A stretch of 64,000 nucleotides of DNA from an uncultured Aquirufa sp. (GTDB lineage: Bacteria; Bacteroidota; Bacteroidia; Cytophagales; Spirosomataceae), in the NCBI GenBank assembly GCA_964358165.1, contig CAYHOB010000009.1, positions 22,298 through 86,297 on the forward strand, written 5' to 3'. This document shows positions 43,805 through 47,672 of this stretch, in pieces (the first letter of the stretch is position 1; each line of letters begins with the position of its first letter). The notes below the pieces were generated by a model that did not search any database, was not told the DNA's origin, and saw nothing but the letters and a program-made list of their open reading frames with translations. A program made the position numbers and the translations under genes.

Positions 43805-44728
43805 TCAATTTGACAATTGTTGGGAATTTATGAAAGCAATTTTCTCATTAATATTTCTGTAGTATTCAGGATAATATTCCTTAAGCCATTTCCCTGAAAG
43901 CTCGGGGTATAATCGTTTATACCCTCCGTGAAAATGAACAAAATCAAAGTTCCTATAACCTGAATCAATTTTACTTTTTTGATAATCAAAATCTAAATTA
44001 AGCGTTGATTTGACCAATTTATTGACACATTTTAATTCAATTCTTGCCGTTTCATAAAAACAATACTGTTCATAAAAACAATTTAAAAATGATTTAGTAG
44101 TACTGTCTACATTTCGAAGAAACGGTATATTTAACTTTAGATTGTTAAAGGAATTTTGAGCATATCGATTGAAAAAATCATAATCATAGCCACCGGTAAT
44201 ACCCAAATTATAATCATTGTACACAAAGTTACTTTGTGCTATTATTCCTTTAAATTCTGGAGACATATTTATCTCGTAATTTAATATTTTATGAATAATC
44301 GTACTGTAACGCTTGAGAATACAATCATCATAATGAAATTCAACGAACAAATCATGTTCTAATTTATGCATATCAAAATGTTTACCTAAAACTACATCAA
44401 CATCGAAATGGACAAAAGGTTCTTTTATCCCAGCATAGGTAAGTAATTTTCCTGTTGACCAAAGATCAGAAGGAAACTCTTCAATCGCATCCATATCAGT
44501 AGAACAGGAATCATAAGGAAATTCAAAAAAATCTATCCATGCTTTTTTACCTTTCTCATCAGTATTTAAATGAACATGAGAAAAAACTTCCTTGAGGCTA
44601 AGCAATGAAAGCGCCCATGTATATATAAATTGGCTCTCATTGAGAAAGCCTCCTTGAGATCTAGCTTCAAATGAATTTGCAGCTGGAAAAGCAAATGGCT
44701 TAGACCAAAAAGATTGAATAACCTTCAT
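43805..44728 (-). CDS. DUF6734-like protein with a DxD motif (GT-A-like candidate)
   Basis: MKVIQSFWSKPF, WALSLLSL, LWSTGKLLTY, PFVHFDVDV, CFYEQY. Family recognised from memory. Confidence 0.65.
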   Translation of the reverse strand: MKVIQSFWSKPFAFPAANSFEARSQGGFLNESQFIYTWALSLLSLKEVFSHVHLNTDEKGKKAWIDFFEFPYDSCSTDMDAIEEFPSDLWSTGKLLTYAGIKEPFVHFDVDVVLGKHFDMHKLEHDLFVEFHYDDCILKRYSTIIHKILNYEINMSPEFKGIIAQSNFVYNDYNLGITGGYDYDFFNRYAQNSFNNLKLNIPFLRNVDSTTKSFLNCFYEQYCFYETARIELKCVNKLVKSTLNLDFDYQKSKIDSGYRNFDFVHFHGGYKRLYPELSGKWLKEYYPEYYRNINEKIAFINSQQLSN

Positions 44729-45255
44729 AAAAGACTTGCCATAAAAAATATGATTAAGAAAAAAAAGCTAATAATAAGTTTTGGCATCAATTTTTGCTTC
44801 AATTCTACACCAAATAAAAAAACAGAAAAAACAATCGAAATAATATCTGCAATTCGACTATATCTATGAAAATTTGTAAGCTCAATTTGGTTTAAAAAAT
44901 TTGGTGAGGTCGCATCTAGATTCGATATTTCATCTATCAAAAAGATCCAAATGAAACCGAATTTAAGTATTTCAGAAGTGATCAGGATAATAAAAAAAAT
45001 ATGAAATGCAGGCATAAACATGTCCAATTTCAAATCATGAATAAATAAGTTTGAACCATACCAAATCACTATTAATATACAATTGATAAACAAGCAATTA
45101 AAAGTTGTTGAAAAAATAATTGAAAAAATAGCAGTTATGCGAGCAACCATTAAGCCTTCATTTGACATGCCCTGGATTAACACTTCTGTTGCTATAATTG
45201 AAAAGATTATTTTCAGAATTAAAAACAGAAAAGCACTAAGTATTAAAGATTTCAT
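44725..45255 (-). CDS. Small multi-pass membrane protein (Yip1-like candidate)
   Basis: About 5 TM segments, 176 aa. ATGA overlap with the downstream gene. Confidence 0.55.
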   Translation of the reverse strand: MKSLILSAFLFLILKIIFSIIATEVLIQGMSNEGLMVARITAIFSIIFSTTFNCLFINCILIVIWYGSNLFIHDLKLDMFMPAFHIFFIILITSEILKFGFIWIFLIDEISNLDATSPNFLNQIELTNFHRYSRIADIISIVFSVFLFGVELKQKLMPKLIISFFFLIIFFMASLL

Positions 45256-45267
45256 AGCGATTGATAA

Positions 45268-45798
45268 TTATAAACTCTTGATAGAATAAGTCTCAATAAT
45301 GGCCGCAAATATCAATAACACAAAAGGGAAAAGAATAGATTTTAGTGAAGGTAAATCTGATACGATTTCTTTGTTTGAAATTGAATTTAAATTTAGGACA
45401 AAATTAAATCCAGATAATCCATACATTCCAAACAAACAAAATGATATTATTTCAAAGGGAACGTGTCCAAATAGCTTAATCAGAAGTTCAAACTCCAAAA
45501 CTTCATGAAGCTGTAATTTTGTAATTACAAATAAGGCCATACCAAATAAGTAACCATTAAAAATTAAAATAAAAACTGTCATTAAACCCGCGGTCGCATA
45601 GCCCATATAACAACAGAGCAAACCAACAGCAATATTCGTTTTGAATAGATAAGAAAACACTTCCCAAAATGACATAGATTTATATACTGAACTAACAGCT
45701 TGATCCGCAATCGGGACAATATATGTTAAATTGCTAGCTAGAAATACACCTGAAATCCAGAAAAACAAACAAGTATAAAACCGGAATATATTACTCAT
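45268..45798 (-). CDS. SpoIIM/DUF95 family membrane protein
   Basis: LFKTNIAV, LIFNGYLFG, GHVPFEI, LLIFAAIIETY match the SpoIIM pattern. Start overlaps the M48 stop by 8 bp. Confidence 0.8.
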   Translation of the reverse strand: MSNIFRFYTCLFFWISGVFLASNLTYIVPIADQAVSSVYKSMSFWEVFSYLFKTNIAVGLLCCYMGYATAGLMTVFILIFNGYLFGMALFVITKLQLHEVLEFELLIKLFGHVPFEIISFCLFGMYGLSGFNFVLNLNSISNKEIVSDLPSLKSILFPFVLLIFAAIIETYSIKSL

Positions 45799-46684
45799 TT
45801 GAAAATGTTTCCTCAATAAAAAGTAATCTTTGTTCGAGTGTAGGATGTGAAATTGACTTGACTTGAAGCTTCCCTCCCGTTATTTCATTTAACTTTTCAA
45901 GGGCTTTCATAATACTATTTTTTCCAACAATCTTGGCAGCAAATTTATCAGCGTCATGCTCCATTATTCTCTGAAAGAACCCCAATATTTCATTAGATAA
46001 CACTAAAAGGAGACCGAATGTGATTCCTTTAACAACCCATCCAATCTTATGTAGAAGAAAAAATGGCAAAATCATATGATTATAAATAATCATTATAATT
46101 ATCTGAATTATGATCATGATGAGCATCAAATAAAATAGATGATGCTTTTTTGTATGTCCTAATTCGTGTGCTATTACAGCTTTTAATTCGTCATTAGTTA
46201 AATTCTTTAGTAAAGGCATACCAATTAAAATAATTTTCGAAAAAGGAAGTATTCCAGTTGCAAATGCGTTGATTAACTCACGATTCACAATTCGAACCTT
46301 AACGGCATAATTCATTTCAACTTGAATAATTTTTTCCATATCCTTATTTTCTTCATATCTACTCGATCGAAATAGAATTACAATTGGATATAAAAGTGGG
46401 CCGAGTCCATAGAAAAAAACGATGAAAAAAATTAAAATTAAAATGCTGTCGGTTTGATTCTTATCCTGATTTTCTAATAATGGATAGAAAGTATAACTTA
46501 AAACAAAAACTATGATACTGAACAAAATAAAATACACGAAGTCAAAGCCACTTTTAAACTGTTTAATTGACTCAAAAAATTTATGATTTTTGCTAAAAAA
46601 TAACTCAGCTGCCAAACTAGCTAATAAGGTAATGACAGGGATTACAGTCGTTACTAATGCGAAAGTCAATCTTTTGTCCATCAT
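45791..46684 (-). CDS. M48 family membrane zinc metallopeptidase
   Basis: NAFATG, ELKAVIAHELGH (HExxH), EHDADKFA, HPTLEQR, several TM segments. Confidence 0.9.
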   Translation of the reverse strand: MMDKRLTFALVTTVIPVITLLASLAAELFFSKNHKFFESIKQFKSGFDFVYFILFSIIVFVLSYTFYPLLENQDKNQTDSILILIFFIVFFYGLGPLLYPIVILFRSSRYEENKDMEKIIQVEMNYAVKVRIVNRELINAFATGILPFSKIILIGMPLLKNLTNDELKAVIAHELGHTKKHHLFYLMLIMIIIQIIIMIIYNHMILPFFLLHKIGWVVKGITFGLLLVLSNEILGFFQRIMEHDADKFAAKIVGKNSIMKALEKLNEITGGKLQVKSISHPTLEQRLLFIEETFSNE

Positions 46685-46698
46685 AATTATGTTTTTAA

Positions 46699-46737
46699 AT
46701 GCTAGAAGATTTGACGAATGATTAAATCTTCTAGCAT
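46699..46737. terminator. 14-bp perfect stem-loop between the peptide gene and the M48 gene
   Basis: ATGCTAGAAGATTT (46699-46712) and AAATCTTCTAGCAT (46724-46737). Only a short U tract on the minus strand. Confidence 0.65.
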
Positions 46738-46746
46738 AATATTAGG

Positions 46747-46989
46747 TTAGAGACCACCAACAAACAATCCAATCCTACCTCCAATAGGACCACCGAAATA
46801 GGTACCAATTGCTAATCCTGCATATGCTCCCACGGCACCGACAATATAACCTTGCGTGTTATTCAAATGATAACGATCCGCGATCACAGCTGCAGCTTTT
46901 GCATTTACTAACGTAACATTATTTTGCTTAACAAGACCCATTATTGAGATTGAAAAGAAAAGTCCAGCAAAAAGATTCCATTTTTTCAT
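46747..46989 (-). CDS. 80-aa Gly/Ala-rich hydrophobic peptide, candidate circular-bacteriocin-like precursor
   Basis: Signal-like N terminus, GxxxG-rich C-terminal half, first gene of the M48/SpoIIM operon. Confidence 0.7.
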   Translation of the reverse strand: MKKWNLFAGLFFSISIMGLVKQNNVTLVNAKAAAVIADRYHLNNTQGYIVGAVGAYAGLAIGTYFGGPIGGRIGLFVGGL

Positions 46990-46999
46990 CTTGAATATA

Positions 47000-47067
47000 T
47001 TTACATTTCATCCCCTACTCTTCATTGGTTTTTCGGGATCCACCAACACTTGAATGTGCGATGTAAA
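47000..47067 (-). ncRNA. Candidate structured 5' leader RNA (three-way junction)
   Basis: Stems TTTACAT/ATGTAAA, GCAC/GTGT and ATCCC/GGGAT, plus a GAA/AGTA internal loop. Ends 10 nt before the peptide ATG. Confidence 0.35.
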
Positions 47068-47103
47068 CCTAGAAATCTCAACGAGGCAAATCAATACCAC
47101 CTA

Positions 47104-47132
47104 GGTAGTAATTTGGTAGTAATTTAGTAGTA
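47104..47132. promoter_or_regulatory. 11-bp-period direct repeats, candidate regulator binding site
   Basis: GGTAGTAATTT GGTAGTAATTT AGTAGTA, between the LuxR gene and the peptide gene. Confidence 0.55.
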
Positions 47133-47162
47133 CATACCCAGCAAATAACAAACAAAATAATT

Positions 47163-47375
47163 TTACTGAGGAGCATTTAGTAAAAACCTCAAAAATGCAA
47201 CCTTGCCTTTGATACCTAATTTTCGCATCACATTTCTGCGGTGACACTTAACAGTAGACTCTTCAATATTCAATTGGAATGCTATCTCTTTATTCGTCAA
47301 GCCTTCTTTGGCTAGATTAATAATTCGATTTTCGCGCATAGAAAATGGCATGAAATTATAGTTCATCGAATTCAT
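47163..47375 (-). CDS. Stand-alone LuxR/NarL-type HTH regulator
   Basis: FSMRENRIINLAKEGLTNKEIAFQLNIEESTVKCHRRNVMRKLG. No REC or ligand-binding domain. Confidence 0.85.
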   Translation of the reverse strand: MNSMNYNFMPFSMRENRIINLAKEGLTNKEIAFQLNIEESTVKCHRRNVMRKLGIKGKVAFLRFLLNAPQ

Positions 47376-47615
47376 AATATTAGTGGTTATAGGTTACAAA
47401 TTATTAACTAGTATACATTTCAATTAGTTAAAATCAGTACAAAGTAAAACCTTATTGAAACGATAATACTCGGATTAATAAATCAATATTACGAATTTGG
47501 CGATTAATGTATTATTCTTTAATCGAATAATGTTCAATTTTTATAAGTCTGAACATCCATGCATGAAAATACTGGATACCACGCAATTATCATTACATTA
47601 ATTTTGGCGAAAAAA

Positions 47616-47672
47616 TAGCCCCAGGTTTTCACCTGGGGCCACAAAACTAGACTCGAAGTATCTTGTCTCTAC
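47616..47672. repeat. REP doublet: TAG-CCCCAGGT hairpin (+) and GTAGAGAC...TACT hairpin (-)
   Basis: 47616-47639 and 47649-47672. Same arrangement as 57481-57530. Confidence 0.7.

Follow-up and report, generated by a model that had tools for sequence, protein, structure and literature searches.

The question raised by this locus is whether the segment that lies on the minus strand, directly upstream of an 80-codon open reading frame in an uncultured Aquirufa, carries a structured RNA and, if so, which one and with what function. The window, i.e., the whole stretch of 64,000 nucleotides that was analyzed, had been the subject of a sequence-only reading that described positions 47067..47000 (minus strand) as a possible structured, cis-located RNA leader of the peptide gene with a topology like that of a hammerhead ribozyme. 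The letters and all of the complementary segments listed in that reading were confirmed, and the ATG of the 80-codon open reading frame was located downstream of the segment, at 46989. The enrichment in GC over the surrounding DNA was confirmed as well (39.7% in the segment versus 28–32% in the flanks), and the GC content of the 35-nt core was 48.6%. The proposal of a structured leader located in cis before the peptide gene was supported by the comparisons described here, and the segment is, with high confidence, a DUF805b pseudoknot RNA.

An Rfam scan, which the sequence-only reading had suggested, was run at a permissive threshold and produced a match to DUF805b (RF02914) at 47046..47012 (Table 1). 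This match is sub-threshold, since its score of 32.0 bits falls 3.6 bits short of the gathering cut-off of the family (35.6 bits), but many copies with the same features in related genomes also score between 28 and 35.6 bits. The E value of 1.1e-6 refers to a 2-kb scan; in the whole 2.56-Mb genome this was the sole DUF805b match, with an E value of 3.4e-7. The match is full-length, with all 35 model positions covered, and the stretches UUGGU, GGAUCCCGAAAA, and ACCAA were aligned to model positions 1–22 with a posterior of 1.00. The hairpin with a 12-nt loop ending in CCGAAAA that is typical of DUF805b is present in the window, as is the (A)GAGUAGG 3′ tail of the family, found as AAGAGUAGGGG at 47022..47012. 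The CC(N) of the loop and the (N′)GG that follows AGUA appear in the window as CCC and GGG. The best match within the clan was DUF805b and not DUF805 (RF03081). The element is thus already known: it is one more sub-threshold member of DUF805b and nothing new beyond that, a catalogued family that the sequence-only reading had missed. DUF805b (clan CL00115) presumably stems from the 2017 survey by Weinberg et al., which reportedly presented 224 candidate structured RNAs. In a search of the literature, neither DUF805 nor DUF805b proved to have been the subject of a functional study, and no transcription, structure-probing, or reporter data for any DUF805b copy were encountered. The motif is not mentioned in the text or supplements of the F. 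psychrophilum transcriptome paper, nor in the main text of the B. thetaiotaomicron transcriptome paper.

Table 1. Features of the DUF805b leader and its surroundings, in window coordinates.
Feature	Position	Strand	Basis or remark
80-aa Gly-rich peptide gene, first of the cassette	46747..46989	-	ORF
A/U-rich 22-nt spacer to the start codon	46990..47011	-	Distance count
ATGTAAA, 3′ arm of the outer stem in the sequence-only reading	47000..47006	-	Judged a chance complement
DUF805b (RF02914) match, pseudoknot core	47012..47046	-	32.0 bits, E 1.1e-6
P2 3′ strand GGG(G)	47012..47015	-	Family pairing and covariation
GAGUA, directly 5′ of P2; AGUA supplies the second strand of the putative loop-E module	47016..47020	-	Invariant, 87 sequences
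P1 3′ strand ACCAA	47025..47029	-	Rfam alignment and covariation
GAAAA, linker from P2 5′ to P1 3′; GAA supplies the first strand of the putative bulged-G module	47030..47034	-	87 sequences
P2 5′ strand (U)CCC, within the P1 loop	47035..47038	-	Pairs with 47015..47012; columns 13–15 with 42–44
P1 5′ strand UUGGU	47042..47046	-	Pairs with 47029..47025; columns 5–8 covary with 21–24
Small hairpin GCAC-AUUCAA-GUG(U)	47047..47060	-	Orthologues change the loop only; G-U to G-C
TAGGTTTA, agrees at 7 of 8 positions with TAnnTTTG, the sigma-A -7 box of Bacteroidota	47064..47071	-	Predicts a start near 47059

A covariation analysis of homologues was another check that the earlier reading had proposed. 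A total of 90 copies were collected with their flanks, 87 of them non-redundant, and aligned without structural guidance; 84 distinct rows were counted. Two helices, P1 and P2, covaried in these 84 distinct homologues. All four Watson–Crick pair types were found at two positions of P1, and its outermost pair, U47046–A47025, is changed to C–A in the orthologues. P2 joins the bases just 5′ of GAAAA, which are part of the hairpin loop, with the bases just 3′ of AGUA, and in the window it consists of 47037–47035 paired with 47015–47013 plus a possible U47038–G47012 wobble. Examples of this second helix among the copies include TTCC/GGAA, TGCC/GGCA, TACC/GGTA, and GCT/AGT. The third P2 pair was CG in 28 rows, GC in 22, UA in 12, AU in 5, GU in 4, and UG in 2, while the first was CG in 67, UG in 11, and UA in 6, with no unpaired case; wherever this pair has an A on its 3′ side, a U is found on the 5′ side (6/6). 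Changes on both sides were observed at five of five pairs in the first helix and at three of five in the second.

The covariation score over the 84 rows was 0.446 compared to 0.157 ± 0.013 in shuffles, none of 500 shuffles reached it, and at six of the seven core pairs the observed pairing was reached in none of 2000 per-pair permutations, although these shuffle statistics overstate independence, since many of the homologues are paralogous copies or come from close relatives. Kinship among the copies does not affect the slid-partner control, in which the score was at most 0.139, or the presence of four pair types across families. Some extra unpaired cells come from a few rows in which a 1-nt deletion in the loop has shifted the alignment register. 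Over the seven core pairs, there were 514 Watson–Crick, 27 G–U, and 2 A–C combinations. The difference between the G–U and A–C counts indicates that the pairing is specific to the sense-strand RNA. These numbers bear on the view that the conserved blocks are a DNA element, such as a bipartite alternative-sigma promoter or an operator, instead of RNA. Multiple copies in front of diverse genes, with CCGAAAA and GAGTAGG blocks at a near-fixed distance from the ATG, are what such an element could look like. However, two interleaved helices covary and do so in a strand-specific manner, and the spacing of the conserved blocks changes with the stretch between P1 and GAGUA, which measures 2 to 12 nt among the copies. 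The bipartite promoter, and the DNA-level reading in general, were rejected for these reasons, and we regard them as highly improbable.

The two helices correspond in part to pairings that had been listed before. Complementarity between TTGGT and ACCAA had been described as a possible pseudoknot or switch; it is indeed a conserved pseudoknot helix, but it coexists with CCC/GGG instead of being an alternative to it. The ATCCC/GGGAT stem was correct at its CCC/GGG core, which covaries, but not in its 5-bp register. That register requires a bulged G beside AGUA, and the orthologue G065 loses two of the five pairs through a U to A change at 47038 and the deletion of U47010. Since AUCCC/GGGAU is broken in G065, only the 3-bp core of P2 is conserved. 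The covariation indicates that P1 and P2 form together as an H-type pseudoknot. In this fold, it is feasible that a 3-nt L1 (GGA) would cross the deep groove of P2 and the putative loop-E module, and that L3, of variable length, would cross P1, as is feasible for a classical H-type knot.

The invariant positions of the family are C, AAAA, GAGUA, and G, and the G that precedes AAAA is at least 90% conserved in the 87 sequences. The earlier remark that GAA lies opposite AGUA, as in a loop-E motif, falls on precisely these invariant bases, and its strands run in the topology expected of such a motif, the agreement being one of sequence signature only. In the putative module, 5′-CC-GAA-3′ would face 5′-AGUA-GG-3′ between the two helices, as in a bulged-G module. 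Two other resemblances were considered and dropped. GGUGGAUCC resembles the complement of the 3′ end of 16S rRNA, and variants of AAGGAGG look like a Shine-Dalgarno sequence, but both were set aside since the positions involved are variable or covarying in the family. The strong conservation of unpaired nucleotides could also mean that the invariant GAAAA and GAGUA bases build the pocket of a small-ligand or ion riboswitch, and the smallest riboswitch pseudoknots known are of about the same size as the one in the window. Nonetheless, the downstream genes do not share a pathway, there is no conserved mutually exclusive pairing, copies are found in phage contigs, and no Rfam riboswitch family was matched. 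This makes such a riboswitch very improbable; a metabolite riboswitch in particular was judged unlikely because the downstream genes are unrelated.

The hammerhead-like three-way junction, taken as a whole, did not exceed what is expected by chance. Its three stems can all be drawn, and its outer stem, TTTACAT/ATGTAAA, is a perfect 7-mer that was also recovered in a repeat search. However, the energy of the junction is −10.6 kcal/mol, 3 kcal/mol worse than the minimum free energy of the 68 nt (−13.6 kcal/mol), which belongs to a different fold and is itself unexceptional (z = −1.05; 36 of 200 shuffles fold equally well or better). A perfect 7-nt inverted repeat within 80 nt was found in 997 of 2000 shuffles of the 173-nt spacer. 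While 21 paralogous leaders share the TTTAC box, the best 3′ partner in them matches at 3 to 6 of 7 bases and has no fixed position. The orthologues G071 and G065 are identical to the window at both arms and are therefore uninformative on the outer stem. This stem was rejected because it occurs at chance level in shuffles and because TTTAC is kept as a sequence and not as a pairing. In addition, its 5′ arm overlaps the predicted promoter box. As for catalysis, the position of the hammerhead core reads UUGGUGG and not CUGANGA, and no hammerhead family was matched in the Rfam scan even at E ≤ 10. With the catalytic core and any Rfam match absent and the junction not conserved, the hammerhead or ribozyme reading was rejected. 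The junction model across 47067..47000, or a ribozyme variant of it, is already contradicted by the comparison of homologues, and we give it next to no credence.

The TTTACAT sequence is better described in relation to the predicted promoter. It is kept, starting 21 nt before P1, in 20 paralogous Aquirufa leaders as well as in the orthologues, and it overlaps the sigma-A-like box TAGGTTTA. This box begins 37 nt upstream of GAAAA, which is where such a box is most often located in the set. The TAnnTTTG element spans −12 to −5 in Flavobacterium (PMC9723704). A transcript starting near 47059 is predicted from the box in the window and, with this start, the 5′ arm of the outer stem would therefore be mostly untranscribed. 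The earlier reading had stated that a transcription start downstream of 47060 would speak against it, and the predicted start lies close to that limit. The small hairpin GCAC-AUUCAA-GUG(U) could form right at the beginning of a transcript with this start. Its CAC/GUG pairing is kept in five of the six nearest paralogues without covariation, and other subfamilies do not have it. The heptamer ATTCAAG occurs twice on the minus strand, in the loop of this hairpin (47055..47049) and directly before the ATG (46996..46990), probably by chance.

Further upstream on the same strand, three direct TACYACC heptamers with an 11-nt period (47132-47126, 47121-47115, and 47110-47104) are followed by an inverted copy (47101-47095), so that the array spans 47132..47095. 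These copies form a 16-bp imperfect palindrome whose center lies about 43.5 nt ahead of the predicted start. In G071 and G065 the heptamers are preserved, but the intervening spacers have changed. The array is likely a binding site for a regulator, perhaps the 70-amino acid GerE/LuxR-type helix-turn-helix protein encoded just upstream (47375..47163).

With a start near 47059, the pseudoknot would sit about 13 nt from the 5′ end of the transcript. A compact structure so placed might act as a 5′-proximal stabilizer that shields short accessory mRNAs from 5′-end-dependent decay. In agreement with this notion, the predicted −7 box is found at a fixed upstream distance in the Aquirufa subfamily, and in another copy (L009) a perfect TAnnTTTG lies 38 nt ahead of the motif. 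However, a stabilizer has no need of unpaired bases that never vary or of a constant distance to the AUG, and the distance to the promoter is fixed only among paralogous cassettes. A role as a stabilizer is improbable.

The gene that follows the leader is the first of a cassette with the order peptide, M48 protease, SpoIIM-like protein, small membrane protein, and DUF6734 protein. Relatives of the 80-amino acid peptide were found in three protein clusters only, and there are orthologues in two other Aquirufa genomes. The end of the DUF805b model and the ATG are separated by 22 nt in the window, which places A46989 26 nt from G47015. The spacing between AGUA and the ATG has a sharp mode of 26 nt in the family (24 of 82 copies) and is 25–27 nt in 45 of 82. 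The base composition of the surroundings was also recorded. The GC content of the peptide cassette together with the GerE gene (43805..47375) is 30.6%, as compared to 40.7% in the window and 46.7% in the adjacent lpdA/sucB genes, and this region resembles a low-GC accessory island. A strong hairpin of 12 pairs followed by a T run, similar to an intrinsic terminator (47642..47615, minus strand), lies just past the lpdA stop codon and sets the housekeeping operon off from the low-GC island.

The LpdA protein of the genome is 94–97% identical to that of Aquirufa MAGs, in line with its placement in Aquirufa (Cytophagales, Bacteroidota). The motif was present in 44 of 61 genomes (60 relatives and the genome under study), with up to eight copies each, and in 25 genomes at least one match exceeds the DUF805b cut-off. 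The genes located after DUF805b copies are diverse: only 2 of 82 encode DUF805, most have no Pfam match, and many encode signal-peptide proteins or double-glycine-leader peptides. At least 11 of the DUF805b-led genes in the relatives code for 53–79-amino acid double-glycine-leader peptides that resemble bacteriocin or RiPP precursors (L009, L016, L028/L029, L049, L067, L072, L074, L078, and L082/L083). Some of these genes are found in tandem, each with its own copy of the leader, such as L009 and L067, which are 350 nt apart. A subfamily in Aquirufa carries the sequence CAAGTT-NNNN-AAC(C)TTGG, which immediately precedes and overlaps the 5′ strand of P1 and lies about 20 nt upstream of P1 (L033, L044, L046, L047, L048, L054, L066, and L068). 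The four central nucleotides are always palindromic but differ among the copies (GGCC, TGCA, TCGA). This sequence could be an alternative hairpin that competes with P1 or a dyad site for a protein.

Copies were also found in viral contigs. Among 128 pattern matches in IMG/VR contigs, all four P1 pairs were present in 84 and the third P2 pair in 105, rates far above chance for random pattern matches. One of these contigs (L111) has a 29-codon open reading frame for a Cys/Gly-rich peptide, MKIVKVKKAHAKAAGCCDCFGGGCRCNN, at the usual distance after the DUF805b copy. A different arrangement is seen in contigs of crAss-like size (60–108 kb; L123:6562-6700, L126, L128, L122, L118, and L108). There, no ATG comes after the well-formed DUF805b copy; instead, about 105 nt of non-coding sequence, containing a hairpin and a stem that resembles a terminator and has a T run, separate it from the next gene. 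In these contigs the pseudoknot may be the beginning of a small non-coding RNA.

That a genome can have several copies, each located before a gene unrelated to the others, would fit an operator for a trans-acting RNA-binding protein, which would bind the loop-E face, cover the A/U-rich start region, and in this way exert a common post-transcriptional repression of genes for accessory secreted or membrane peptides. The invariant bases are unpaired and the distance to the AUG is fixed, as such a site might require. Bulged-G modules are common protein-binding sites, and the leader pseudoknot of T4 gene 32 acts in this general way. On the other hand, no candidate protein is linked to the motif, and its occurrence in phage contigs and many families would demand a universally conserved partner. 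We consider the protein operator unlikely, although nothing separates it from docking of the ribosome, which is discussed below.

Taking these results into consideration, the best overall explanation is probably that the segment is the DUF805b pseudoknot leader of the 80-amino acid peptide gene and would act in cis. That it does so at the level of translation initiation is a tentative proposal, inferred from the spacing, the diversity of the genes, and the use by phages. A general role in initiation is the likeliest function because the downstream genes are diverse and because copies exist in phage contigs. Likewise, an element that is portable, multi-copy, and used by phages, that has a fixed geometry with respect to the AUG and no conserved alternative fold, points to initiation rather than to a metabolite riboswitch. 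According to this proposal, the pseudoknot would end about 22 nt before the AUG, immediately beyond the 30S footprint, and its loop-E face would be turned toward the platform of the ribosome or toward a protein associated with the ribosome. It would thereby help place a start region that is A/U-rich and devoid of a Shine-Dalgarno sequence. Initiation in Bacteroidota proceeds largely without Shine-Dalgarno pairing. Against a function in placing the AUG are the crAss-like copies with about 105 nt of non-coding sequence instead of an ATG, which the proposal does not explain.

A more specific version, which we hold to be rather doubtful, is that DUF805b is a Shine-Dalgarno-independent docking element whose loop-E pseudoknot binds the Bacteroidota 30S platform (or S1/bS21). 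The start site would then be fixed about 26 nt downstream of the pseudoknot. If this were true, DUF805b would be a portable high-expression leader shared by accessory genes of the host and phages. Independently of the mechanism, the identification accounts for the conserved, GC-richer block that precedes the cassette and disposes of a mistaken ribozyme lead. The widespread DUF805b leader, which is structured, keeps a fixed distance from the AUG, and is shared with phages, is a tractable handle on how Bacteroidota ribosomes choose their start sites, a question that concerns the DUF805b family and not the copy in the window. DUF805b is also a possible expression part for Bacteroidota engineering.

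Compared to known systems, the window agrees with DUF805b in having a 4–5 bp hairpin with a 12-nt loop, CCGAAAA, GAGUAGG, a position proximal to the start codon, and a Bacteroidota host. It differs in the gene that follows, which belongs to a Gly-rich peptide cassette and is not DUF805. Furthermore, the Rfam model of DUF805b as printed contains only the hairpin (4 bp), while the second helix presented here was derived from covariation. DUF805, of the same clan, has the same 3′ half, i.e., the hairpin, the CCGAAAA loop, and the GAGUAGG tail, but on the 5′ side it adds a further hairpin (GUGG...CCAC) and a linker rich in A; the window has neither, and its GCAC-AUUCAA-GUGU hairpin abuts P1 without a linker. 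The resemblance to a type III hammerhead is superficial only (three drawable stems, a GAAA, and an AUC), and the segment departs from it in the core, the Rfam result, and the conservation of the junction discussed above. With the sarcin-ricin loop or loop E, the segment would share AGUA opposite GAA, a flanking G–C pair, and the same polarity, as deduced by reasoning; the correspondence is a match of signatures, and here the module would lie between the two helices of a pseudoknot. The closest functional parallels may be the pseudoknots of T4 gene 32 and E. coli rpsO/S15, in which, as in the window, a small H-type leader pseudoknot is followed by an unstructured A/U-rich start region. These are autoregulatory sites of single genes with a known protein partner. 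Unlike them, DUF805b is found in multiple copies, before unrelated genes, and in a phylum that largely initiates translation without Shine-Dalgarno sequences.
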